A DNA stretch of 13,430 nt from Promethearchaeati archaeon (GCA_013166775.1 JABLTJ010000048.1:1-13430); one strand, 5' to 3'; shown: positions 2 through 13,430, counted from the first letter of the stretch. A program made the numbers and translations. Notes: generated by a model not told the origin, from the sequence alone.

Positions 2-244
2 GATCAAGATGGTCTATCAGATGGTGTCGAAGTCTATATTTATGGAACATCACCTTTCACATCCGATACAGATGGTGATAAATACGATGATTTTCTAGAA
101 ATTCTTATGGGAAGAGATCCTCTTATTAAGAACCATGATAGGCAGCTTCTTTTTGGTTTATATTTACTTCCAGTTTATATAGTAGTAGTTTCTGTACCAC
201 CAGTTACAATTTTAATTATCAAAAAAAGAAGAAAGAAAAAATAA
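2..244 (+). CDS. 3' end of a membrane-anchored protein with bacterial-type thrombospondin type 3 (TSP3) Ca-binding repeats (5' truncated by window)
   Basis: Manual translation of frame 2: DQDGLSDGVEVYIYGTSPFTSDTDGDKYDDFLEILMGRDPLIKNHDRQLLFGLYLLPVYIVVVSVPPVTILIIKKRRKKK*. DxDGLSDGxE / DTDGDxxxDxxE repeats, C-terminal hydrophobic helix, basic tail, TAA at 242-244. Confidence 0.85.
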   Translation, partial: DQDGLSDGVEVYIYGTSPFTSDTDGDKYDDFLEILMGRDPLIKNHDRQLLFGLYLLPVYIVVVSVPPVTILIIKKRRKKK

Positions 245-276
245 ATGATGCCTCAGGACTCACACTTCCTCTTTAA
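241..276 (+). repeat. Dispersed repeat copy R1 (left arm + core)
   Basis: ATAAATGATGCCTCAGGACTCACACTTCCTCTTTAA aligns with 5438-5472 and 3306-3340. It overlaps the stop codon of the TSP3 gene. Confidence 0.9.
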
Positions 277-345
277 TGAATACGAATTCTCAGAAAAAAA
301 TCCATTTGTGAAAAAGATAGAAAAATTGAGTTAAATTCAACTCAA

Positions 346-1833
346 TTACATTTGATACCCACATTCCGGGCAGTGTTTATACCCAGCATCTATTTCTTTT
401 CCACAACTAGGACAGAAAACAGTTCCTTCTTGCTTTTCCTGTTGTCTTTCTTGCGTTACCTCAGTTAATCTTTTAGTACTGGTATCTGTTGGTGCTACAA
501 TTGGTCTTCTCCTCGCTTGGACAACGATCCAAGTAATTAATGGAACTAGACATAAAACTGCAATACTAATAGGTCCCAATGATAAGCAAATGGGGAATCC
601 CGTCCAGAAATCCCAACTTTGAACTCCTATGATTATTGCTATTGATACGACAAAGAAGATAATACTCGCTATTAATGAGATTTTCACAGCTTTATGCATA
701 CCCCCCGAATAGGATTGAGGAGAAGCTGCACGACGAGCTCTATTGCGTTCCATTCGGTCTTTTATTTGGTCTCTTCTCCAAACTATTAAACCAACAGAAG
801 TTGAGACTACTACGATAGCTAATACACCTAAGATAATATTTCTTATAAGAGTACCAGGTAGGACAATCTTTGTTGTACTAATTCGATTAGGAGCTTGGGG
901 TGTAGAAACATCAAATATGATTAAATCATAAAGCGAGAAGTAGGCTCTATCATTATCAACAAACATGCTATGATATCTACCACCAATATTACTTAGAGAT
1001 CGATCAATAGGAGAACTAGTGTGAAAATCAACGATATTCAGACTAGAACCATATATAATAAACAATTGATTATTATAAACAGTAAACTCATCGATGTAAC
1101 CATAACCAGAATAATTTCCAGAATAAGTCATGTTTGCAGGATTAGCTATATTAACTCGAGTAAAAATATTTGATGAATAAAGATAAGCATATGTACCTTC
1201 AACTTCAAGATCATAACCTTCTACACTTGTCAATTCACCAAGATCAGATGGTGAGCTTGGGTTGCTAACATCAATAGCATGTATTCCTGTATCACCTATG
1301 GTTACATAAGCAATAGTTCCAACAACACGTACACCATAAATTGTCCAGGGAGAATAATTATTCAATAAAACAGGACTTCCAGGATTAGCAACGTTAATGA
1401 TTTTTAGAACATAGTTAACTACAATATATAAAACACCGCCAGAGATAACCAGATCATTAGCAAAATGAGTGGTACTGTACGAGTAAAAACCAACTTGCAC
1501 AGGATCATTAGGATCACTTACATCTATAATATAAATCTCAAATTCTGCAGAACTGATTTCAGATTGGACAGAAACATAAACGTAATCCCCTTCAGCAACA
1601 ATAAGATTACATGAATAAGCAGCCAATTTTAAGTAACCAGCAGATTGAGGATTATTTTCATCACTGATATCCATAATAAATAATCCAACGTCTTGAGTCA
1701 TTAAGAAATAAGCATAATTTCCCATAACACAAAGATCGGAAGCACGAGCTTTACTTTCAACATTTCTTACAGAAATAAATAATGGAATCATTAATAATAG
1801 TAGTAATAGAAGAGTGGATTTTCGGTTTTTCAC
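346..1833 (-). CDS. LVIVD-repeat beta-propeller membrane protein with three C-terminal TM segments and a zinc ribbon
   Basis: Seven LVIVD-like blades (e.g. GLFIMDISDENNP, IYIIDVSDPNDP, IHAIDVSNPSSP, LIIFDVSTPQAP), N-terminal signal-like segment, three hydrophobic helices, CPSC-x10-CPEC tail. ORF track starts at 1851, but GGAGGGAG before GTG at 1833 suggests this start. Confidence 0.85.
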   Translation of the reverse strand: MKNRKSTLLLLLLLMIPLFISVRNVESKARASDLCVMGNYAYFLMTQDVGLFIMDISDENNPQSAGYLKLAAYSCNLIVAEGDYVYVSVQSEISSAEFEIYIIDVSDPNDPVQVGFYSYSTTHFANDLVISGGVLYIVVNYVLKIINVANPGSPVLLNNYSPWTIYGVRVVGTIAYVTIGDTGIHAIDVSNPSSPSDLGELTSVEGYDLEVEGTYAYLYSSNIFTRVNIANPANMTYSGNYSGYGYIDEFTVYNNQLFIIYGSSLNIVDFHTSSPIDRSLSNIGGRYHSMFVDNDRAYFSLYDLIIFDVSTPQAPNRISTTKIVLPGTLIRNIILGVLAIVVVSTSVGLIVWRRDQIKDRMERNRARRAASPQSYSGGMHKAVKISLIASIIFFVVSIAIIIGVQSWDFWTGFPICLSLGPISIAVLCLVPLITWIVVQARRRPIVAPTDTSTKRLTEVTQERQQEKQEGTVFCPSCGKEIDAGYKHCPECGYQM

Positions 1834-1897
1834 AGAAATTGCTCCCTCCAAACTATTATTGCTTTATCTATTTTTTAAAGTTATTTCACAAATTAAA

Positions 1898-2270
1898 TCA
1901 ATAAGCTGTTTGACGTTCAACAGCAAGATTAGATAAACGTCTTCTACTGACATCATTTGGTGGAGGAGCGGGACCTTTTGATATTCTACCTACAACATAA
2001 AATCTTACAATAATTATGGTGATGAGAAGAACGAAGGAAATTGGAACTGTTATTAGGCTCATTAAGCAAAGATAAAACCAAGAAGACGGGGGAGATATCT
2101 TTGACTGGTAGGATCCTTCTTTCTCGAACATATAGAACTATTGTCCAAATTAGTAATCCAAGCAAAATAGGTGAGGTAATAAGAAAGACTAAATGCAAAA
2201 CATTACAAGCATACTAAGGGTCATAGACAATATTGTTAGGAGAAACATAATCAAGTATAATATCTAACAA
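1898..2270 (-). pseudogene. Disrupted small membrane protein locus: two fragments resembling the C-terminal TM module of the LVIVD protein
   Basis: AAGGAG then TTG at 2270: MLDIILDYVSPNNIVYDP*YACNVLHLVFLITSPILLGLLIWTIVLYVRERRILPVKDIS (in-frame TAG 2214-2216). Near 2090-2100 a different frame continues ISPPSSWFYLCLMSLITVPISFVLLITIIIVRFYVVGRISKGPAPPPNDVSRRRLSNLAVERQTAY*. Confidence 0.55.
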
Positions 2271-2291
2271 AAGGATACTCTCCTTTTACTT

Positions 2292-2330
2292 ACAATCATA
2301 ATTGATACCTCCGGACTCACACTTCTTCAA
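2292..2330 (+). repeat. Dispersed repeat copy R2 (left arm + core)
   Basis: ACAATCATAATTGATACCTCCGGACTCACACTTCTTC closely matches 5432-5467. Similarity stops right after the core, where the orphan gene stop codon (2327-2329) lies. Confidence 0.9.
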
Positions 2331-3190
2331 AATTTCTTATTTATTAATTGTTCCAGTTTTTCATTAAGAGTGAATTCATCTAATTCTAGTTCTGAACCTA
2401 ATGAAGAATAAAAACTTAGAGCATTTAAAAAACAATAATAAACTATTTTTCTATTTCTTGATAAATTGTCAGGTTCCTCAATTTCAGCTATAATTTTACA
2501 TGCAAAATCTCTTACAGGTTTGAGATGATTTAGAAAACAGAGCAAACGAATCCCACCATGAAAAGCTACCTCGTATGGTGTAAGTGATTTTGAGAGTAAC
2601 TCATCCCTCAAATAAAGTAAATAATTATGACCAAAATGAGCCAATCTATGGTAATGTTCGCCATAAGACTTGTAATGATATGGATGAAAGGTAGAAGTAA
2701 TATTAGTATCCTCAAATGAGATTTTTGAATCATAAAAGTATAAGCGATCATTAGTTAAAATATTGGAAAAAATGAGAAAAGCTTCTTTCGCTGTTAGATT
2801 TATTGGTTCAAACTCAAGTCGTTTTTGATGATTTTTATAGTAGATATTGTACAAAATAACGGGAGCAAATAATTGTTCATTAATTTCTGTTTCTAAACTG
2901 ACAACATGGTGGAAATAATCATTGAGGTCTCCAATTAAAAAACTGTTATGAAAATCTGGCGGAAGGTCAGAGGATTCTGTAAAAAATCTAAGAAGTTGCT
3001 TAGGAAAAACTTTTCGAGTAATTGGTTTGTCAAATAATCGATGAAGCTGATAAAAGGCATTGAAAGGATAATGACCGGCCCAACCACCCATTCGATAACC
3101 AACTATTTGATTGTTAATGATATAGCATTGGTTTTGGTTATCCATTACAATAAATAATGGGAGATTGTCTTCCTTGATTTTAAGTAACAA
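2327..3190 (-). CDS. Hypothetical protein (no recognisable family)
   Basis: Long open frame (303 aa in the ORF track from 3238) in AT-rich DNA. GTGAGG before TTG at 3190 suggests a later start. His/Tyr/Phe-rich, no motif recognised. Confidence 0.7.
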   Translation of the reverse strand: MLLKIKEDNLPLFIVMDNQNQCYIINNQIVGYRMGGWAGHYPFNAFYQLHRLFDKPITRKVFPKQLLRFFTESSDLPPDFHNSFLIGDLNDYFHHVVSLETEINEQLFAPVILYNIYYKNHQKRLEFEPINLTAKEAFLIFSNILTNDRLYFYDSKISFEDTNITSTFHPYHYKSYGEHYHRLAHFGHNYLLYLRDELLSKSLTPYEVAFHGGIRLLCFLNHLKPVRDFACKIIAEIEEPDNLSRNRKIVYYCFLNALSFYSSLGSELELDEFTLNEKLEQLINKKF

Positions 3191-3215
3191 ATACCTCACT
3201 TCTTTATAACACTTT

Positions 3216-3252
3216 AACAAATAAATGATATATAACACTTACACTTCTTCAA
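3216..3252 (+). repeat. Degenerate repeat copy R2b (left box + core)
   Basis: ATAAATGAT-N7-ACTTACACTTCTTCAA has the same box spacing as R4 (ATAATTGAT-N7-ACTCACACTTCTTC). 3237-3252 matches 2315-2330 at 15/16. Confidence 0.75.
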
Positions 3253-3300
3253 TTAAAAAAAATCATAGGATCAACTGATTCATATAAAAAACAAAAGAAA

Positions 3301-3402
3301 AAACAATAATTGATGCTTCGGTCTCACACTTCCTCTTTAAGGTCTAGAAGTCCATTTCGGTAATGACACGCTTAAGTGGTAAGTATCTGCTGGCTGAGCA
3401 TC
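3301..3402 (+). repeat. Dispersed repeat copy R3 (full length)
   Basis: 3312-3402 aligns without gaps to 5444-5534 (72/91 identical by hand count). Ends GATGCT...AGCATC are inverted complements. Confidence 0.95.
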
Positions 3403-3551
3403 TCGCCCGAAGATTCAATGCAAATTTTTTGATTCTTATCTTACTGAGTTTATATTTTTAGGAAAATACTTCTGTAGAATTTAATTTTATAGAGAGACAA
3501 TTTATTAGGCACGTTGTTTATAAAATAATCAATCAACCATATAAAACTACA

Positions 3552-4085
3552 TTGAAGAAGAAAAAATATGAATGGATGGAAACAACTATGGCATTTGATA
3601 TCAATAATTTATTTCAAGAATTAAAAAATCTCAAGGCAATAGAATTCCCACGAAGAGAAATAACACCAATTTCAGATGATACTCCTTTAATTGAAATCTT
3701 GAACAAATTAGGGGCATCTGATCTTCCAATAATACCTGTAATAAACAAGAAGGATGAATATATTGGAATTATTACTTTACGTGATTTACTATTTCTTTTT
3801 CAAAGAAAACATACTTCCTTACATGAAGCTTTTCATCTGCAACATATGACTGAAGGATACATAGCAGGCGAGTTAATCAACATCAATCTTCCAGTTATCT
3901 ACGACGATGATTCATTTGAAAGAATTATTGAAAGCATGGCAAAGTTCCAATCCTCTGTTCTACCGCGTGCACCTAATAGGAAGGAGCAAATATCAGGTCT
4001 GATTTATCTGAAGGATATCTTCACTGAAATAAGAAACACTTTACGAAAATTAATTAGTATGGAGAAGGAGGAATCCAACGAATGA
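3552..4085 (+). CDS. CBS-domain pair protein
   Basis: ISDDTPLIEILNKL...IPVINKKDEYIGIITLRDLL and IYDDDSFERIIESM...ISGLIYLKDIF are typical CBS repeats. Alternative ATG starts at 3576/3588. Stop overlaps the next start (ATGA, 4082-4085). Confidence 0.85.
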   Translation: MKKKKYEWMETTMAFDINNLFQELKNLKAIEFPRREITPISDDTPLIEILNKLGASDLPIIPVINKKDEYIGIITLRDLLFLFQRKHTSLHEAFHLQHMTEGYIAGELININLPVIYDDDSFERIIESMAKFQSSVLPRAPNRKEQISGLIYLKDIFTEIRNTLRKLISMEKEESNE

Positions 4086-5368
4086 GTTTAGGAGAAGCTG
4101 CTTCTGAACCTCTTCAAATTTTTCTATATCTTGGAGTAGCACTTATTTCTGCAAGAATTCTTGGAGAAATCTTTGAACGTATCAAACTCTCCTCAATTAT
4201 TGGTGAGATTTTAGCAGGAATAATCTTTGGTGGACCATTCTTAGGATTGATTGGTAGAGATCCAAATTTATTTGTTAATATTGATGTTTTAACACAGTTT
4301 TCTCAAATAGGAATTATTATTTTATTATTCATAATTGGATTAGAAGTTAGTCCTAAAAGTCTAAAGAGTGCAGGCAAACAGAGTATTTTCATTTCATTAA
4401 TTGAAGTTTTCATAGCTTTAGTTGGCGGATTTCTAACTGGATACTTCTTGTTAAAATTAACAATGGCACAGGCCATATTTTTCGGAACGATGTTCACAGC
4501 AACTAGTATTGGGGTAACTGTAAGAGCTTTAAATGATATAGGGAAATTAAATACAAAAGTGGGAGAAATCTTATTGTCTACAGCAATTTTCGATGATATT
4601 ATTGCGTTATTTCTAGTGTTGATATTCTCTTATGCACTCTTCCCAGAACCAGGCTCAGTATGGTACATAACCTTGCTTATTAACCTTGGAATCTTAATTG
4701 CATTGATAATTGGCATCATCTTTGTAATTCCTTTTATTCTGAGATTCAGTGAAAGAAGATTTAGAATTTTCTCAGATTCTAGAACTAACTATTTCACTTT
4801 AGGAATAATATTTGGTGTATTAGCACTTTTAGTTTATTTTGCAGAATCGCTGGGAATTTCAGGAGCAATAATTGCTTTTCTTTTTGGATTCTCAATTCAA
4901 AACAATAAAGTGCTCATAGGTGATATAAAAGAAGCGTTCATTAAAATGGGAGAAGGAATATTCCTCCCATTATTTTTCTTCGCAGTAGGAGCTAATTTCT
5001 TGCTTGATTTCACAGCATTCTCACCATTATTACTGCTAATTGTACCAATAGCAATTCTGGCAAAAGGTCTCGGAACTTTTGCAGGTTCATCAATAATGAA
5101 ATTTAAACCGAAAGAGGCACTAAAGATAACAGTAGGGATGATCCCCAGAGCAGAAATCATTTTAGTCATTGCTGAAATAGGTTTAATTCAAGGTATCTTT
5201 TCTCAAAGTATCTTCTCAATGGCAGTCTTATTGGTTTTCATTTCAGTAATCATTACACCTATTGGATTAAAATTATTATTTAGAGAACCAAAACCATCAC
5301 TACCAGCTCTTGAATATAGTCAGAAAGAACTGGATAAAACAGAAAATGGGCTTACGGAAATTGGTTAA
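4082..5368 (+). CDS. Cation:proton antiporter, CPA2 (KefB/NapA-like) family
   Basis: Many TM helices. Motifs GEILAGIIFG, IGIIILLFIIGLE, ATSIGVTVRAL, AIFDD, FLPLFFFAVG, GMIPRAE. Confidence 0.93.
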   Translation: MSLGEAASEPLQIFLYLGVALISARILGEIFERIKLSSIIGEILAGIIFGGPFLGLIGRDPNLFVNIDVLTQFSQIGIIILLFIIGLEVSPKSLKSAGKQSIFISLIEVFIALVGGFLTGYFLLKLTMAQAIFFGTMFTATSIGVTVRALNDIGKLNTKVGEILLSTAIFDDIIALFLVLIFSYALFPEPGSVWYITLLINLGILIALIIGIIFVIPFILRFSERRFRIFSDSRTNYFTLGIIFGVLALLVYFAESLGISGAIIAFLFGFSIQNNKVLIGDIKEAFIKMGEGIFLPLFFFAVGANFLLDFTAFSPLLLLIVPIAILAKGLGTFAGSSIMKFKPKEALKITVGMIPRAEIILVIAEIGLIQGIFSQSIFSMAVLLVFISVIITPIGLKLLFREPKPSLPALEYSQKELDKTENGLTEIG

Positions 5369-5390
5369 GCTAATGAAATATTAGCTTAAC
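5364..5390 (+). terminator. Perfect 11-bp inverted repeat at antiporter stop, terminator-like
   Basis: GTTAAGCTAAT-GAAAT-ATTAGCTTAAC overlapping TAA 5366-5368, followed by T-rich ATTCTTTATT. Confidence 0.5.
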
Positions 5391-5428
5391 ATTCTTTATT
5401 CATTAAACAAGAATCCTAAATGGTTGAT

Positions 5429-5534
5429 AAAACAATCATAATTGATGCTCAGGACTCACACTTCTTCTTTTAGGTCTAGCAGTCCGGTTCGGGAAGGACA
5501 CGCGGAATTGAAAAGTACCTGCTGACAGAGCATT
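5429..5534 (+). repeat. Dispersed repeat copy R4 (full length)
   Basis: Ungapped homolog of R3. Shares ACAATCATAATTGAT with R2 and a 28-nt identical block (5476-5503) with R5. ATGCTC...GAGCAT terminal inverted complement. Confidence 0.95.
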
Positions 5535-5688
5535 GCAAAGAAGTATTAATGATTTAGAGAAGATTTTTTAGGAAATTTACTTGTTGTATTTTATTGGAGG
5601 ATAATTTTACCGCCTACTAAAAGATAGGATGGACATTAGTCACATTATTAATGATAAAGATGAAAATGCTTGTTTTCTTATTTCATGT

Positions 5689-7059
5689 TTATTTTATATA
5701 GATCGTTTTGATATTTACGAACTCCTTGATACCATAATAAGACAATTCTCGACCATAACCACTTTGTTTTATCCCACCAAATGGTAACCTAGGATCAGAT
5801 CTAACAAACGTATTGATGAAACAACTTCCTGCTTCAATTTCCTCAACAGCTAATCTTTCTCCTCTAGCAAGATCTTTTGTGAAAATAGCTGATCCTAAAC
5901 CAAAAACTGAATCATTTGCTATGGAGATCGCTTCCTCCGAATCTTTTGCTGTAATGATACTTGCAACTGGACCAAAAAGTTCTTCGTCGTAAGCTGGCAT
6001 ACCCTTCTTTACATTATCAAGAACTGTTGGAGGATAAAAAGCACCAGATCCTTCAGGAATGAAACCACCCAAAAGCAGTTCAGCTCCCATTTCTATACTT
6101 TTTTGAACTTGTTTATGAAGTTCATCCCTTAAGTCATGTCTCGCTTGAGGACCTACATTAGTTGAAGGATTAAATGGGTCACCCATTTCCATAAATTTCA
6201 TGGATTCTACAAATCTTTCCACAAAACTATCTTTCTTTGATTCTACAATAATAAATCTTTTAGCAGCAATACAACTTTGTCCGGCATTAACTAATCGGCT
6301 ATTTACACAAGTCATAACAGCTCCTTCATTTTCCGCATCTTCAAGAATAATATAGGGATCACTACCGCCCAATTCCAGAACAGTTTTTTTGAGCATTTCA
6401 CCTGCTTTTGATGCTACTGCTTTTCCTGCAGGAGTACTTCCAGTCAGAGTAACAGCCTTTACAATATCATTTTCTATAACTGCTGCAACTTGTTTACTGC
6501 CAATAAGTAATGTTTTGAATGCATATTCAGGAAAACCTGCTTTTCTAAAAACCTCTTCAATTATTAAAGCGGAACCAGGAACATTAGAAGCATGTTTTAA
6601 CACACCGACATTTCCAGCCATAAGAGCAGGTGCAGCAAATCTGAATACTTGCCAATACGGAAAATTCCAAGGCATAACTGCAAGAATTACTCCCAGGGGT
6701 TGAAATGCCACATAACTCTTTGTTGCTTCTGTTTTAACAATTTCGGGTTTTAGAATCTCTTCAGCATTTTCAGCATAGTATTCACAAACCCAAGCACATT
6801 TTTCAACTTCACCGATAGCATCTTTGAAGATTTTTCCCATTTCTAAAGTAAGCATTTTAGCATACGAATCTTTGTTTTCTCGTAAGATTTTAGCTGCTTG
6901 TAACATCAATTTCTTTCTTTCACTAAAAGGAACTTTTCTCCATTTCTTAAACTCTACATGACATTTCTCTAATATTTTTGAAACTTCTTCTGGTGTCATT
7001 TCTTTATATTCTTTGATTTTCTCACCAGTAGTGGGATTTATCGAAACAATTGCCAACAT
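5689..7059 (-). CDS. gabD: NAD(P)-dependent aldehyde dehydrogenase, succinate-semialdehyde dehydrogenase (Sad/GabD1-like)
   Basis: MPWNFP, LKHASNVP, LTGS, ELGGSD (catalytic Glu), NAGQSCIAAKR (catalytic Cys), EELFGP, PFGGIKQSGYGREL. AGGTGA RBS precedes ATG 7059/TTG 7056 (ORF track start 7065). Confidence 0.9.
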   Translation of the reverse strand: MLAIVSINPTTGEKIKEYKEMTPEEVSKILEKCHVEFKKWRKVPFSERKKLMLQAAKILRENKDSYAKMLTLEMGKIFKDAIGEVEKCAWVCEYYAENAEEILKPEIVKTEATKSYVAFQPLGVILAVMPWNFPYWQVFRFAAPALMAGNVGVLKHASNVPGSALIIEEVFRKAGFPEYAFKTLLIGSKQVAAVIENDIVKAVTLTGSTPAGKAVASKAGEMLKKTVLELGGSDPYIILEDAENEGAVMTCVNSRLVNAGQSCIAAKRFIIVESKKDSFVERFVESMKFMEMGDPFNPSTNVGPQARHDLRDELHKQVQKSIEMGAELLLGGFIPEGSGAFYPPTVLDNVKKGMPAYDEELFGPVASIITAKDSEEAISIANDSVFGLGSAIFTKDLARGERLAVEEIEAGSCFINTFVRSDPRLPFGGIKQSGYGRELSYYGIKEFVNIKTIYIK

Positions 7060-7132
7060 CTTCACCTTTGCTTTATACTATCTACTTAGAATGCTGTTCT
7101 ATATAATTGTACGGTTTTACAAATTTGTAGTT

Positions 7133-8821
7133 TTATAAGTGATACTTAAATTCCATCTCTTTTGTAAGATCTACTGATGGATCTATTATACAAACCAATT
7201 TGAACAACTCATCAATAAGGACTTTAACGTTTTCAGAATAGTCAATAAGTAGATCAATTACATGTACTCCTTTGGAGTTCAGACATTTTTGTAAAAGTGG
7301 CAATAATTCTTCAGTCTTCAGTACTCTATGCCCCTTTGCTCCATAACTTTCTGCATATTTTACGAAATCCGGATTTGTGAAATCCAATCCCCAATCCTCA
7401 AATTTCATGATTTTTTGCTTCCATTTTATCATACCATAAGCGCTATCATTAACGATTAAAACAGTTAAATCAAGATTTAATCTCACTGCTGTTTCTAATT
7501 CTTGTGAATTCATAAGAAATCCTCCATCACCACAAATAGCTAGAACTTTCTTCTTTGGATAAACAATCTTTGCTGCTATTGCTGATGGTAAACCTGCACC
7601 CATGGATGCTAAAGCATTATCTAGGATAATAGAATTCGGTTTATAAGCGTGATAATTTCTGGCAAACCATATCTTGTATATTCCATTATCTAATGTAATA
7701 ATTCCATCTTCGGGAACAGCTGTTCTAACATCCGAGATTAATCTCTGCGGTTTGACAGGAAAGTCATTACAATCTTGGCCTTGATGAGTATGTTTATCAA
7801 CTTCTTCCTTAACTTTTTTGAAATATCTAAAATCCCACTTTTGATTAACAGTAATTTTTTTAGCTATTTTTGAAACAGAATTTGCGATATCTCCAATGAC
7901 TTCAATTTGAGGAAAATAGACATCATCTATGTGAGCTTTGAAGAAATTTACATGAATAACAGTTGTCTCACCATGATGCATAAAGAAAGGAGGTTTTTCA
8001 ATAATATCATGACCAACATTGATAATTAAATCAGATTTTCGAATTGCACAATGAAGATAATCATTATCCGATAAAGCTGCAGTACCTAAAAAAAGAGGGT
8101 GTCTTTCATCCACTGCACCTTTAGCCATTTGAGTATTGAAAAAAGGTATCCCTGTTTTATCTATAAAATCATCTAAAGCATTCTGTACTCTCTTCCTATT
8201 GGCTCCTGCGCCTATTAGTAACAAGGGGTATTTAGCTGATTCGATCTTCTTTATAGCAGAAGCAATAGCTTGTTTATCAGCTGTTGGACGTCTAATATCA
8301 TGTTTCTCAAAAAGAGTAGCAGAGGTTTCTTCCCTAGCTATATCTTCAGGTAATTCTATATGAACAGCTCCAGGTCTTTCTTCTTCAGCTAATCTGAATG
8401 CTTCTCTAACTACAGAAGGGATTGCATTACCATTTACTATTTGTTTAGTGAAATAAGTTAAAGGCTTCATCATATTGACAATATCAACGATTTGAAATCT
8501 GCCTTGTTTGCTACTTTTTATCGGTTTCTGCCCTGTAATCATCACTAAGGGCATACCACCCAATTGAGCATAGGCAGCTGCTGTTACAAGATTTGTTGCT
8601 CCTGGACCTAATGTTGATAAACAGACACCTGCTTTACCTGTAAACCTTCCATAAGTTGCCGCCATAAAACCAGCAGCTTGTTCGTGTCTTGTGAGAATCA
8701 ATTTGATTGAAGATTTTCTGATTGACTCAAGAAAATCTAGATTCTCTTCTCCAGGAATACCAAAGATATATTCCACTCCCTCATTTTCTAGAGCCTTTAC
8801 AAAAAGATCTGACGCTTTCAT
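7133..8821 (-). CDS. ThDP-dependent acetolactate-synthase-large-subunit-like enzyme (possible 2-oxoacid decarboxylase)
   Basis: FGIPGEEN, RHEQ (catalytic Glu), STLGPGATN, ThDP-binding GDGGFLMNSQELET...VND motif, 562 aa. Confidence 0.9.
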   Translation of the reverse strand: MKASDLFVKALENEGVEYIFGIPGEENLDFLESIRKSSIKLILTRHEQAAGFMAATYGRFTGKAGVCLSTLGPGATNLVTAAAYAQLGGMPLVMITGQKPIKSSKQGRFQIVDIVNMMKPLTYFTKQIVNGNAIPSVVREAFRLAEEERPGAVHIELPEDIAREETSATLFEKHDIRRPTADKQAIASAIKKIESAKYPLLLIGAGANRKRVQNALDDFIDKTGIPFFNTQMAKGAVDERHPLFLGTAALSDNDYLHCAIRKSDLIINVGHDIIEKPPFFMHHGETTVIHVNFFKAHIDDVYFPQIEVIGDIANSVSKIAKKITVNQKWDFRYFKKVKEEVDKHTHQGQDCNDFPVKPQRLISDVRTAVPEDGIITLDNGIYKIWFARNYHAYKPNSIILDNALASMGAGLPSAIAAKIVYPKKKVLAICGDGGFLMNSQELETAVRLNLDLTVLIVNDSAYGMIKWKQKIMKFEDWGLDFTNPDFVKYAESYGAKGHRVLKTEELLPLLQKCLNSKGVHVIDLLIDYSENVKVLIDELFKLVCIIDPSVDLTKEMEFKYHL

Positions 8822-8943
8822 TTTTTATCAACAACATTAACTAATATATTATTTATCTACTAATTTATTATTATAGCTGATTTTAGACAAAATATTATGA
8901 ATCGATTGAACATGATCTAAACCAGGGGAATTTATTTAATCCT

Positions 8944-8985
8944 CAATTCTTCTTGAAAGGCGAGAAGGTCAGGTCGATTATGATA
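8944..8985 (+). repeat. Highly degenerate repeat copy Rx (core + right arm)
   Basis: CAATTCTTCTTGAAAGGCGAGAAGGTCAGGTCGATTATGATA aligns ungapped to R3 3327-3368 at 29/42 positions (hand count), same orientation. Confidence 0.6.
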
Positions 8986-9005
8986 TTGAAAGGTTATTTC
9001 TATTT

Positions 9006-9039
9006 TTTATAGCTGTTTAATTTTATCGACAGCTATAAA
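9006..9039. repeat. 11-bp perfect inverted repeat (terminator or operator)
   Basis: TTTATAGCTGT (9006-9016) / ACAGCTATAAA (9029-9039), 12-nt spacer. An extra half-site TTATAGCTG lies at 8871-8879. Confidence 0.6.
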
Positions 9040-9149
9040 GAATGCTGATTATTGTAAATTTAGGTTCTTCTTAGATTCAAAAGTATAATCAAATATGTAT
9101 TTTAATTAGTATTAAAACAATTTTTGAGCAATACTCGAAGAGTAATATA

Positions 9150-11186
9150 TTATGCAGCAGCTCCGTTCTTTGAAGTCATTTCTTTCTCTTGTTTTACTTT
9201 TGCTAATATTTCAGGAGTTATTTTTCCTTCAGCTATCAATTTGTTGAGAGCTTCATCATCAAGTAAACCTCGTTCAAGCAAAGCTAAAGGAGTTAACTCA
9301 ACTTCTTCTTGTTCATCCACAAATTTCTGAAGATCAATTTTTTCAAGTCCTTGAAAAGCGTAATATGTTCTGTAAACATCAGCATAGATTCCATCTAATT
9401 TCATCAACTCTGTGTGATTACCTTCTTCGATCAGTTTTCCATGATCAAGAACGATTATCTTATCTGCATTATGAATTGTTGATAATCGGTGTGCTATGAC
9501 AAATGTTGTCCTGTTTTTGAACAATTTTTCTTGAGCTTCTTGTATTAAAGATTCTGTATATGTATCCAATCTAGATGTGGCTTCATCTAGTATGAGTATT
9601 TCAGGATCCGCTAACATAGTTCGTGCAATAGTGATCATTTGTCTTTGTCCAGCAGAGAGTTGTTTTCCGCCTTCATTTACGATTGTGCTATATCCATTAG
9701 GTAAGGCTTCAATGAAAGCATCTGCTCCTATTAGCTTACAAATTTCAAATACTTCATTATCTGAAGCATCAGGTTTCCCGTAGCGAATATTCTCTATAAT
9801 TGATGATGAGAATAGATATGGTTCTTGAGGAATAAGGCCAAGAGTATTTCGTAGTGATGTTTGGGTAATATCTCTTATATCTTGGTCACCAATTTTTATT
9901 GATCCTTTTTGTATATCAAAAAATCTTGGGATAAGCATACTCGCAATCGTTGTTTTTCCAGCTCCTGTTTCTCCTACTAATGCAACGATTTCTCCATTAT
10001 TTGCGGTAAAACTAATATCTTTTAGAACCCAGTTATCATCATTGTACGCAAACCAAACACTGTCAAAAGTTACTGATCTATCTTCCGACTTTATAGGAAC
10101 TGCAGTCTTTTTATCAGATATAGCTGAAGTAGCCTCTAAAACATCAATAACCCGATCCAAAGAACCTAATGCTGATTGTAATTGTGGAAATGAGAATGAC
10201 AATATAATTACTGGTAGTAAGAATAGATTTGCCAATGTTACTCCAAGGAAGATTTCTCCAGGACTTAGATTTATAGCTCCCCCAGCTAATAAAATTGCTG
10301 CGGTAGCAATTGAAGCTATCATGCCAATTAATGGAAAAACAATGTTTACCATTAGACCAAATTTTATGTTCATTTTATAATGAGTTTCATTTAGTACCCG
10401 CATTTGTTGTGCTTGACCTCCTTCTTGAACAAAGGATTTACTTACGGCTATTCCAGAGATACTTTCAGCCATTTTACCAGAAACTTCACCAAAAGCTTGG
10501 CGAATATTAAGAATGATCCTTCTGCCTATTTTACTAAAAACGAGACTTAGAATGAGTGCTGCTGGTACTGTTCCAATTGTTATAAGTAATATTTGCCAAC
10601 CAGTTCTAACTATTAGAACAATTAATGTTGCAATCAATACCATGAATTGTATACCAACATTGACAATTACTTGGATGCCTGATCCAATTTCTTCTGTATC
10701 ACTAGTTATTCTAGCAGTTATATTACCACTTTGCTCTTTCTTCAAATAAGACATAGAGGAATTTATCAGCTTATGGTAGACATCTTCTCGAATATTTTTA
10801 ATCATATTAGCACGAGCTCTAGCAAGAAAACGAGTACTAATAGATTGCAATATAAATCCAATTAAACCTAACCCAATAAAAATTCCAGCAAATATTCCAA
10901 TAACTGATAATAACGGAAGTGATTGTCCTTCTATTATCTCAACAAAAATTTTACCATCTTCTATAGTTATTGTATCAGGATTTATTGAATCAATTCCTTG
11001 CGAAAGAATGAGAGGGTTTACAAGCTGAATTGCGGCATACAATATACTAATTACGCCTGTACCAATTAATAAACCAGAAAATCCTTTCAGATATTTTAAT
11101 AATTCCCGAGTTAGTTGGCCAATAGGTCTAGTATTCTTCTTTTCTTTGGATGCAATTCGGCTAACAGATGATCCTTCACGACTCAT
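9150..11186 (-). CDS. ABC exporter, fused TMD-NBD, consensus-catalytic subunit of a heterodimer
   Basis: TM domain, Walker A GETGAGKT, signature LSAGQRQ, Walker B ILILDE, switch IAHR. Start directly follows the upstream stop (TAAATG) with GGAGGAG RBS. Confidence 0.95.
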   Translation of the reverse strand: MSREGSSVSRIASKEKKNTRPIGQLTRELLKYLKGFSGLLIGTGVISILYAAIQLVNPLILSQGIDSINPDTITIEDGKIFVEIIEGQSLPLLSVIGIFAGIFIGLGLIGFILQSISTRFLARARANMIKNIREDVYHKLINSSMSYLKKEQSGNITARITSDTEEIGSGIQVIVNVGIQFMVLIATLIVLIVRTGWQILLITIGTVPAALILSLVFSKIGRRIILNIRQAFGEVSGKMAESISGIAVSKSFVQEGGQAQQMRVLNETHYKMNIKFGLMVNIVFPLIGMIASIATAAILLAGGAINLSPGEIFLGVTLANLFLLPVIILSFSFPQLQSALGSLDRVIDVLEATSAISDKKTAVPIKSEDRSVTFDSVWFAYNDDNWVLKDISFTANNGEIVALVGETGAGKTTIASMLIPRFFDIQKGSIKIGDQDIRDITQTSLRNTLGLIPQEPYLFSSSIIENIRYGKPDASDNEVFEICKLIGADAFIEALPNGYSTIVNEGGKQLSAGQRQMITIARTMLADPEILILDEATSRLDTYTESLIQEAQEKLFKNRTTFVIAHRLSTIHNADKIIVLDHGKLIEEGNHTELMKLDGIYADVYRTYYAFQGLEKIDLQKFVDEQEEVELTPLALLERGLLDDEALNKLIAEGKITPEILAKVKQEKEMTSKNGAAA

Positions 11187-13067
11187 TTAATTTACTCCTC
11201 CAGATTTTAATATATCATTCACTTGCGAATCGCTTGGAAGATGACTTAGCATGTACTGGTATTTAATACAGCGACCCAACAATTCTTGATGAGTTCCAAA
11301 ATCAAGAATTTCCCCTTTTTCTAAGAAAATAATCAAATCTGATTCAACTAGAGTGGATAATCTTTGTGTAACGATGATAGAAGTTCTACCTTTTATGAGC
11401 TCTTCCATTGCTAAACGTAAACGAGCTTCAGTTTTTATATCAACAGCACTTGTCGAATCATCCAGTAAAAGCAGCTTAGGATCTGCTAATAAAGCTCGAG
11501 CAATAGCAATTCTTTGCTTCTGTCCACCAGACAGTGAAACACCTCGTTCACTAATAGGAGTATCAAAACCTTCTGGAGATGCTTCAATGAAGCTTAAAGC
11601 TTGAGCTCTTCTTGCTGCTGTTCGTAACTCTTCAAAAGTAGCATCGGGTTTTGAGAATAAAATGTTATCTTTAATCGATGCTGAAAATAAAAAGATGTCT
11701 TGTTCAACGAGTGTAACATCTCTCCTTACATCTTCTGTAGCCATATCTTTAATGGCACATCCATTTAGAAAAATTTCACCTTCAGTGGGATCATATAAAC
11801 GTAACAATAATTTGAGAATACTACTCTTACCAGAACCAGGACCACCAATGATAGCTACTCGAGACCCAGGAGGAATTGTAATATTAATGTTTTTTAGAAC
11901 AAATTTCTCAGTATTAGGATAATTAAAATAAACATTTTTGAAAACGATATTCTTATCCCAATCAGCAACAAGAGGCATTGAAGGTTCCTCTAACCAATCA
12001 TCATATGATAAAATATCCCAGATTCTTTGAGCATTAACTAGTCCGGCTTGTAACATTAGAAGACGCATAGGAACCATGAAATTAAATGTAAGTAGGCTGA
12101 AAAGTAAAGTGAGCATAGCAGCAAGATCACCAGAAGTAATAACCCCTTGAGGTATAAGATAAATTCCAAATCCAAACGAAATACCCATTGCTATTATAAT
12201 CAGCAATGATGGCCAATAAAAAGAACCTAAAAAACCTTCTTTCTTAACATAACCAGCATAATTTTCATTTATTACTCTAAACTTGTTTTCTTCGGTGTTT
12301 TCATTATTAAATGAACGGACAACTTCAATCCCTCGGAATACTTCTTGTGAAGAAGAAGAAATCTTTCCTAATTCTGTAGATAGTTTTCTTCTTACTGGAC
12401 CAATTTTGGAAGCATATCTCCAAGCTAGAAGCACATAGAGGACAAAGCTTACAGTTACACCAACACCTATTTGCCAAACCCCAACTCCAATGTACCTGGT
12501 TCCAATTGGTATTTTAACAAAGAAGTAAACACAAGTTAATGCGATGCTAAGAAAAGTACTTAATAACAATCGGAATGCGGGTTGGTATGCAAGACGAATT
12601 TGAGTAACCTCATTCATCCCCATAGATAATAAAACACCAGAGTCTTTTTCATCATGAAAAGCCATAGAATGCTCCTGGATAACTTCGAAGAATTCCTGAC
12701 GAATATCCCGTTCAATTCTAAAAGCAGCTACAGACCAAATATAAGAACCGAAAAAGCTCACAGCCCAATTAATTACAGCAGCAATTATAACTGATAAGCC
12801 AATCCACAGAAATATACTTGAGAATCCTTCTTTAGTAAAAATATCAATCCCCCAACCTACAAAAATACTAGGAACTAGGCCCAATATACTCGAAATAAGT
12901 AGAAAAAATATAGAAACAAGAAATATACCTGGATATCTTCTTAAGCCTGACCAAAACCAATGGTTAGCTGATCGATATTTTTCTGTTAATAATTTTTGTT
13001 TTGATAAGCCAATAATAGTGTCAGAGACATCACATTGCTCCCCTTCTATGACCAAATACATCACCAT
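11187..13067 (-). CDS. ABC exporter, fused TMD-NBD, degenerate subunit of a heterodimer
   Basis: Walker A GGPGSGKS, signature LSGGQKQ, Walker B LLLLDD (Asp for catalytic Glu), switch VTQR (Gln for His). Exact start uncertain. Confidence 0.95.
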   Translation of the reverse strand: MVMYLVIEGEQCDVSDTIIGLSKQKLLTEKYRSANHWFWSGLRRYPGIFLVSIFFLLISSILGLVPSIFVGWGIDIFTKEGFSSIFLWIGLSVIIAAVINWAVSFFGSYIWSVAAFRIERDIRQEFFEVIQEHSMAFHDEKDSGVLLSMGMNEVTQIRLAYQPAFRLLLSTFLSIALTCVYFFVKIPIGTRYIGVGVWQIGVGVTVSFVLYVLLAWRYASKIGPVRRKLSTELGKISSSSQEVFRGIEVVRSFNNENTEENKFRVINENYAGYVKKEGFLGSFYWPSLLIIIAMGISFGFGIYLIPQGVITSGDLAAMLTLLFSLLTFNFMVPMRLLMLQAGLVNAQRIWDILSYDDWLEEPSMPLVADWDKNIVFKNVYFNYPNTEKFVLKNINITIPPGSRVAIIGGPGSGKSSILKLLLRLYDPTEGEIFLNGCAIKDMATEDVRRDVTLVEQDIFLFSASIKDNILFSKPDATFEELRTAARRAQALSFIEASPEGFDTPISERGVSLSGGQKQRIAIARALLADPKLLLLDDSTSAVDIKTEARLRLAMEELIKGRTSIIVTQRLSTLVESDLIIFLEKGEILDFGTHQELLGRCIKYQYMLSHLPSDSQVNDILKSGGVN

Positions 13068-13248
13068 CTAATCTTAGCTAAAGATACAAATCAATAATAT
13101 TAATACTTATTATATAGAAAATTAGGAAATTAAGACAAAAAATAGCAATTTATTAAATTCATTAGAAAATGCAGAAACTAAAAATTCAAATAAATTTCAT
13201 TTTCACAAAAGAAAATAAAAGATTAATCAAAAAGGTAGTCTCTGCACC

Positions 13249-13309
13249 CACTTCTTCTTTCCGGGCTAGCAGTCCGGTTCGGGAAGGACACGCATAAGTG
13301 AGATGCATT
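13249..13309 (+). repeat. Dispersed repeat copy R5 (core + right arm, divergent left arm)
   Basis: CACTTCTTCTTT at 13249-13260. CTAGCAGTCCGGTTCGGGAAGGACACGC (13266-13293) is identical to 5476-5503. The following ATAAGTG resembles R3 TTAAGTG. Confidence 0.92.
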
Positions 13310-13430
13310 AATCTCTTCACTAAAAAATAGATGAATTTTGAAGTACTACAATATACACTTTAGTATTCTTATTTTTAGAAAAAACTAACTTATGTCTTTA
13401 CTTTTCCTCCTTTTAATGATGAAATAAAGT

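Follow-up and report, generated by a model that had tools for sequence, protein, structure and literature searches.

The large subunit (LSU) ribosomal RNA (rRNA) region is a safe harbour for eukaryotic ribosomal DNA (rDNA) elements, such as the non-LTR (long terminal repeat) retrotransposons R1 and R2, and Pokey, with variable 5′ truncation and a fixed 3′ end. Two prokaryotic arrangements are also relevant here. Integron cassette arrays (attC, CALINs) have been reported in Archaea by Ghaly et al. 2022 (PMC9668308), and in SAR11 the hypervariable region HVR2 is a strain-variable accessory island located between the 16S-23S and the 5S rRNA genes (PMC4053759). In this work, we analyze a stretch of 13,430 nucleotides (the window) which is the entire contig C88 of an archaeal metagenome-assembled genome (MAG), the assembly G000 (3.85 Mb, 115 contigs, 33% GC, 88.7% complete). 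The window is a fragment of a large accessory-gene cassette array, in which each cassette is followed by one repeat in the orientation of the 23S rRNA gene. And the repeat is itself a piece of 23S rRNA. A literature search that included archaeal integrons (PMC9668308), the Heimdallarchaeum mobilome (PMC8813620) and archaeal 23S circularisation (PMC12918454) did not find such an array described.

Each repeat is what we call a tail: a pseudo-copy, truncated on its 5′ side, that reproduces the 3′ end of a Heimdallarchaeal 23S rRNA gene and the 3′ trailer behind it. The clearest example is in the genome G041 (MAG 12F4_9), where an Rfam search (archaeal LSU model, RF02540) places the LSU rRNA of contig C98 at L072 10488-14769, and the terminal repeat copy, at L072 14725-14823 and opposite to the model strand, crosses position 14769. 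Because this terminal copy spans the 3′ end of a real gene, the repeat is identified as the reverse complement of a 23S gene end, its final ~45 nt here and 20-60 nt more generally, with ~55 nt of trailer. The repeat likewise overlaps the real 23S end in G043 (L059), MAG_147 (L067) and G042 (L097). A 23S-end profile, covering the final 600 nt and the trailer of the real 23S genes in G041, G042 and G043, matches a copy in contig C8 of G000 that retains 283 nt of 23S at E 5e-82, and the window copy at 3305-3421 at E 1.4e-33. The window copies line up directly with those three real 23S ends (alignment A3), this last one included.

We use the convention that the repeat model reads on the window + strand, and the 23S sense of the tails is the minus strand. 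In the 23S sense, a tail goes from 0-283 nt of 23S to the trailer strand, with a region resembling a bulge-helix-bulge (BHB), then to the core GAAGAAGTGTG, then to one of two arms (A or A2), and finally to a T-run. Co-folds of leader and trailer for G041, G042 and G043 present the trailer part of the repeat as one strand of the 23S processing stem. In these predicted folds the core provides the trailer side of a perfect 11-bp helix, the distal arm pairs with the leader further out, and the unpaired stretches beside the core helix read as a relaxed BHB-like motif. We also considered the repeat as a hairpin of its own, either RNA or DNA, and rejected it: neither strand folds better than shuffled sequences (z from -1.36 to +1.07), and the consensus fold has only 9 pairs. 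The hypothesis of a small RNA gene family with its own promoter (Yfr-like) was abandoned after the 23S identity became clear. Rfam reports no relevant family on the window at E ≤ 1, and nothing at gathering score on the longer tail copies (C8, C69, L044), because the fragments are too short. The window has no tRNA genes.

Copies in the window were mapped by repeat finding and by a profile hidden Markov model (HMM) built from long copies, run with nhmmer over the entire 3.85-Mb assembly. An earlier note on this DNA had described co-oriented repeats at every boundary between unrelated gene modules, and that description stands: all seven copies are on one strand (23S sense minus), and each is real by itself or backed by orthologous copies. 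The first two are short. The copy at 242-276 (nhmmer E 9e-5, core match, alignment A3) has arm A and the 11-nt core only (model positions 3-36), and the stop codon of the open reading frame (ORF) at 2-244 falls within its arm. The copy at 2299-2328 also has arm A plus core (model positions 3-31; core match, alignment A3); it is weak by HMM and has 92% identity across 36 nt by BLAST (E 2e-7), and the stop codon of an orphan ORF (2327-2329) adjoins its core. Then there is a doublet. Its first member, at 3221-3255, is a degenerate arm-plus-core copy found by repeat finding and core match (71% identity to arm and core at 3216-3252), and its second is a full tail at 3305-3421 (3306-3402 by the long-copy HMM), with 62 nt of the 23S end, trailer including the BHB-like region, core, arm A and T-run. 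The doublet is kept in contig C8 (C88 3237-3383 vs. C8 2609-2465, 82% identical), which is further support for the degenerate member. Another full tail at 5437-5534 (5438-5534 by the long-copy HMM, 5437-5533 by the 23S-end profile) has 42 nt of 23S, trailer, core and arm A. Between the gene for a thiamine diphosphate (ThDP)-dependent enzyme and a pair of ABC genes there is a decayed tail at 8941-8983 (model positions 20-62, HMM E 0.32), whose orthologous place has a well-preserved copy in contig C12 (2148-2227, E 1e-16) and a degenerate one in G043 (L087 6883-6927). The last tail, at 13228-13317 by profile searches, has arm A2 (GGTAGTCTCTGCA), core CCCACTTCTTC, trailer and ~21 nt of 23S; the long-copy HMM covers 13246-13317, and the 23S-end profile 13243-13302 (21 nt of 23S). 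The 11-nt core CACACTTCTTC, allowing at most one mismatch, appears 6 times in the window, all on the + strand, vs. 0.28 expected, and none of 200 shuffles reaches 6. The within-module junctions of the window, which the note had described as free of repeats, have no copy by HMM at E ≤ 1.

For the assembly as a whole, the same profile reports 28 copies, all of them on 7 short contigs (C8, C12, C40, C57, C69, C88 and C89) that add up to 47 kb of the 3.85 Mb. Copies are on a single strand in each of these contigs, and overlapping contig ends preserve the polarity. An exact-pattern scan of species-representative genomes shows the repeat in several Heimdallarchaeota MAGs, and our map of the family has 119 copies at 32 loci in 8 assemblies, with a median copy spacing of 1177 bp and no mixed-strand loci (0/32). 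The largest set is that of G041, with 54 copies on six contigs, co-oriented within each contig save one weak stray match far outside the array. A selfish repeat of the MITE or REPIN kind, a replichore-polarised motif, or a canonical attC or pdif array would also produce short, repeated, intergenic elements, and that is all that speaks for any of them. Against them, the copies are restricted to those 47 kb (and in G041 to array contigs), they have neither terminal inverted repeats nor a significant fold, the R″/R′ boxes are absent, and the sequence is plainly a 23S 3′ end. We find these readings extremely improbable. Thus the note's MITE/REPIN and replichore alternatives fall, while its exclusion of attC, CRISPR and dif sites holds (all copies are direct and without R/L boxes; the dif consensus itself was not searched). 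Its cassette-array reading was right as to a polar array of unrelated cargo, and missed both the 23S 3′-end identity and the anchoring that we describe next.

The arrays are anchored at the 23S gene. In G041 and G042, they start at a single real 23S gene and extend downstream in the 23S orientation; in the 130-kb contig C98 of G041, the array begins at ~102.7 kb. The genes flanking the array ends are ordinary (clostripain-like, alpha/beta-hydrolase, HD-associated). In the 23S sense, the tails vary at their proximal 5′ end and not at their distal 3′ end: the 23S part retained ranges continuously from 0 to ~63 nt, a few copies keep up to 283 nt, and at least 19 copies consist of arm plus core only. 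The other end needs more care. Copy starts are bimodal around the arm/core border (53 copies begin at model positions 2-5, 43 at 18-22), and the seemingly armless copies, including the last one of the window, bear a second conserved arm, A2 (AAAATGTAGAATCACTGCA on the window + strand). Arm A is the trailer type of the real 23S genes in G041 and G043, and A2 that of G042. Both are mixed within single arrays, which implies exchange between lineages. The cassettes are compact, often with 1-2 intact genes and a tail 17-50 nt past the stop codon.

Judging from alignments between contigs, the cassettes demonstrably re-assort at the tails, as the note had proposed that the modules would. As an example, a cassette of the window that encodes a CBS-domain protein and a CPA2-type exchanger recurs with both its bounding tails on contig C69, 86% identical and among other neighbours. 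The right-hand tail on C69 is a mosaic: its left part is like the window tail at 5438, and its right part and flank are like that at 3306. The aldehyde dehydrogenase (ALDH) and ThDP enzyme cassette has a copy on C12 (92%) with a different continuation beyond the tail. Contig C18 of G043 is colinear with window 5680-13143 at 93% identity, and the synteny is lost exactly at the tail 5438-5534, beyond which an alpha/beta-hydrolase and an LVIVD gene take the place of the CBS-CPA2 cassette. G000, G041, G044 and CSMAG_1338 have cassettes in common at 77-97% identity. Many of the shared-cassette alignments stop at model positions 20-25, that is, at the arm/core border, and 27 of the 28 segments in common have unchanged polarity with respect to the tails. 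A core-trailer-cargo unit is found behind either A or A2 at least 5 times, including a 97%-identical pair (L065/L055) that switches within the core. Linkage between variable positions fades within 10-20 nt along the entire repeat, and not at the core alone, in what is a rough analysis since the copies are related by descent. In Logan contigs, the tails have 10-20 times the depth of the cargo and contain almost every joint and loose end.

Could the tails be kept mainly for a role at the RNA level, as a terminator and/or as an EndA/BHB signal, in a static array left by old duplications? Read in the 23S sense, every arm leads into a T-run (on the model strand, the 14 nt preceding arm A contain 7 A on average), the blocks conserved among the copies coincide with the strands of the processing stem, and 89 of the array ORFs (60%) have the 23S direction. 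But the remaining 60 (40%) are antisense. Moreover, the partner strand, the leader, is not repeated, and therefore no local BHB is possible. Finally, since cassette order varies among near-identical relatives and cassettes are common to different genomes, the array is not static. We think this explanation improbable.

Once the repeats are recognised as 23S ends and the arrays as anchored at the 23S gene, the mechanism has to be read differently. It must cover the duplication of a tail with each unit, the strict polarity, the anchoring, and the mixed origin of the tails. We consider homology-driven recombination between tails, on the conserved 23S end, the most likely engine, with a confidence slightly better than even. 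Recombination of two direct tails would release a one-tailed circle, and this circle, or an imported tail-bearing fragment, could then enter any resident tail, including the real 23S end, by a single crossover (Campbell-type). Such an insertion would duplicate the tail and preserve the polarity, and the array would start at the single real 23S gene and grow downstream. The variable 23S-derived part and the mosaic copies fit this process no worse than they fit a dedicated capture machine.

The alternative that deserves most attention is an integron-like site-specific system, in which a recombinase encoded outside the array exchanges strands in the 11-nt core CACACTTCTTC, and cassette circles of arm, cargo, tail and core are excised and inserted, for instance by one of the 1-6 tyrosine recombinases per genome found in G041-G045. 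Such a system would account for the sharp and bimodal copy starts at the arm/core border, the arm swaps between near-identical cassettes, the copies reduced to arm plus core, and the small dense cassettes, integron-like in themselves. The sharpness of the border is partly forced, though, because the arms A and A2 are not homologous. On the other hand, an exchange limited to the core never copies 23S sequence into the array, yet nearly every copy holds a 23S piece of variable length; the linkage decay is spread over the whole repeat, with no single point; a hairpin or inverted-repeat architecture is not above shuffled controls; and no array or tail has a linked recombinase. We regard this alternative as possible but doubtful. 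The same tentative standing applies to a dedicated Heimdall cassette system that would use the 23S processing stem as its recombination site, with an unlinked recombinase acting at the core and with terminator and processing signals reused.

Several observations weigh against homology-driven recombination as the engine. Compact cassettes and at least 19 arm-plus-core stubs would also suit a site-specific system for which arm and core suffice. The first acquisition of a tail by a new gene is left unexplained if homologous recombination is the only process. In G043, the 6 kb that follow the real 23S gene contain no further tail. Neither circles nor empty sites are seen in the Logan contigs, where the joint sides are 21-51 nt long and ambiguous between copies. 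In addition, every genome used is a fragmented MAG, and the joins between array contigs are inferred from shared ends.

Tyrosine recombinases (PF00589) are absent from G000. They are present in all five array-bearing genomes searched (G041-G045), 1-6 per genome, with none on the G041 array contigs and none within 4-16 kb of any tail in the G041-G045 loci scanned for tails or cores. Serine recombinases or resolvases are absent in 3 of the 4 array-bearing genomes searched, and there are none in arrays. Reverse transcriptase (RVT_1, PF00078) has no match in five genomes (G000, G041, G043, G044 and G045). The commonest 25 of the 108 Pfam families from 136 array ORFs include no integrase. All in all, more than 150 kb of arrays have no tyrosine or serine recombinase or reverse transcriptase gene in or beside them. 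The linked recombinase that the earlier note suggested to look for is thus missing near arrays and tails, and its proposal of a recombinase encoded elsewhere finds no support. A LAGLIDADG homing-endonuclease ORF near the array edge of G041 (contig C98, L072 12717-13274) was considered and discarded: it lies inside the 23S gene, most likely within an rRNA intron. The G041 23S spans 4.28 kb vs. ~3.3-3.4 kb in G000, G042 and G043.

Pfam backs most of the labels that the modules of the window had been given (LVIVD, CBS, the CPA2 Na/H exchanger, aldehyde dehydrogenase, the ThDP enzyme and two ABC exporters); the TSP3 match is weak, at E 0.0015 and under the Pfam cut-off. The first cassette (346-2131, minus strand) encodes an LVIVD beta-propeller protein with a C-terminal zinc ribbon (346-1851; the ribbon is residues 476-500) and a 77-aa ORF (1898-2131). 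A second LVIVD cassette is held by the G043 array (L087 809-1972). Next is the orphan ORF of 303 aa (2327-3238, minus), which has a homologue in the G041 array (L075 8408-9224, 73%) with unchanged polarity relative to the tails. The CBS-domain protein and CPA2-type Na+/H+ exchanger cassette is at 3552-5368 on the plus strand. A perfect 12-bp hairpin followed by a T-rich stretch (5364-5390, plus) comes directly after the CPA2 stop codon and is kept in the C69 copy; it may be this cassette's own terminator. The aldehyde dehydrogenase and ThDP-dependent enzyme cassette (5689-8821, minus) has copies in C12 and in G043 (93%), and a paralogous pair with 75-77% identity on the core contig C100 (7812-10942). 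C100 bears no tail copy, and the ALDH-ThDP operon is therefore found in two settings, in a cassette and at an ordinary locus. The last cassette (9150-13067, minus) has two fused ABC exporter genes (transmembrane domain followed by nucleotide-binding domain, TMD-NBD), in the part colinear with G043 C18 at 93%.

Across the family, the cargo consists of heterogeneous accessory genes, and the 136 ORFs mentioned above fall into 108 Pfam families. It includes TPR and beta-propeller proteins, hydrolases, transporters, methyltransferases, and DUF433/DUF5615 pairs. These toxin-antitoxin-like pairs occur twice among the G041 array ORFs (L072-L080) and are typical of large cassette arrays. Two array ORFs, at L061 1-1250 and L073 14164-16323, have internal tandem repeats of ~135 nt and look like surface proteins; no other shared segments change their orientation with respect to the tails.

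To which organism does the window belong? We think that the seven array contigs were probably mis-binned from a co-occurring relative of G043, and we hold this with fair confidence; the alternative is a recent transfer between lineages. The 23S gene of G000 itself (C52 4985-8366) has a different 3′ end, has no array behind it, and is very unlike the genes of G041, G043 and MAG_147. A core region of the MAG has orthologues in 24 of 24 same-genus genomes and none in G041-G045. On the other hand, the best match of the window is G043 at 93%, vs. at most ~70% within the genus of the MAG, and the repeat-free part of C57 matches G041-G045 only. In addition, the tails match the 23S type of the G041/G043 lineage and not that of C52. 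A comparison of the 23S flanks of G000 (C52) and G041 shows no synteny. The absence of any repeat copy in 40 relatives chosen by GTDB placement (24 of them in the same genus) reflects the probable mis-binning of the contig rather than the rarity of the repeat. In C52, the 16S (99-1611, minus) and the 23S (4985-8366, plus) genes are unlinked and divergent, 3.4 kb apart.

Asgard archaea, notably Heimdall, are studied for their uptake of bacterial genes, and here is a locus, defined by its sequence, at which accessory genes accumulate and change hands. As many as 54 or more cassettes follow a single 23S gene, and a fossil 23S end marks each of them. Because the tails bear the signature of their source 23S in the form of two arm types, they could serve as provenance tags for interspecies horizontal transfer. 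In practice, assemblies break at the tails and contigs are mis-binned because of them (probably this one too); the tails can also pass for new structured RNAs, and they may create false partial 23S matches.

How does this compare with what has been described? The pdif modules have 28-bp XerC/XerD sites in alternating orientation, whereas all tails are direct and G000 has no Xer-type recombinase (the dif consensus was not searched). Unlike MITE or REPIN elements, the tails have no palindromic unit or terminal inverted repeats and are not scattered genome-wide in both orientations. With R1/R2 and Pokey the tails share the variable 5′ truncation and fixed 3′ end at the LSU rRNA region, but here the truncated unit is the target sequence, the insertions are behind the gene, and the five genomes searched have no reverse transcriptase. 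SAR11 HVR2 is likewise an accessory island directly behind the 23S, for which the conserved rRNA genes are evident homology anchors; but it is one island between two rRNA genes, for which internal 23S tails are not described (PMC4053759).

The tandem islands at tRNA and tmRNA 3′ ends have a similar plan, with insertion beside a stable-RNA gene and co-oriented direct repeats of its 3′ end bounding the units. Those islands are inserted by integrases, one encoded by each unit next to its att site; the 3′ part of the target gene is duplicated as attL/attR, and serial insertions leave a row of partial gene copies. Our repeats copy the 23S 3′ end, they are co-oriented, and the first unit abuts the gene in G041 and G042, with whose 23S ends the window copies align. 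The differences are that the target here is a 23S gene plus trailer, that the units (0.3-10 kb) have no integrase, that there are dozens of them per array, and that the duplicated part varies widely in length.

As for integrons, both kinds of arrays are long and one-directional, with small, unrelated, often single-gene cassettes carrying one repeat each; both have toxin-antitoxin-like pairs (here DUF433/DUF5615), appear fragmented in MAGs, and have cassettes common to several genomes. Unlike in integrons, the repeat is a 23S pseudo-copy and not an attC hairpin with R/L boxes (RYYYAAC/GTTRRRY are absent in alignment A1), no IntI is found (PF00589 is absent from G000 and not near tails in G041-G045; the IntI-specific insertion was not tested), ORF co-orientation is 60% while in integrons almost all ORFs are co-oriented, and the anchor is a 23S gene instead of attI/intI. 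If a dedicated system were nevertheless at work, these arrays would be the functional counterpart of integrons in archaea, anchored at the rDNA, through which the closest relatives of eukaryotes could take in foreign genes.

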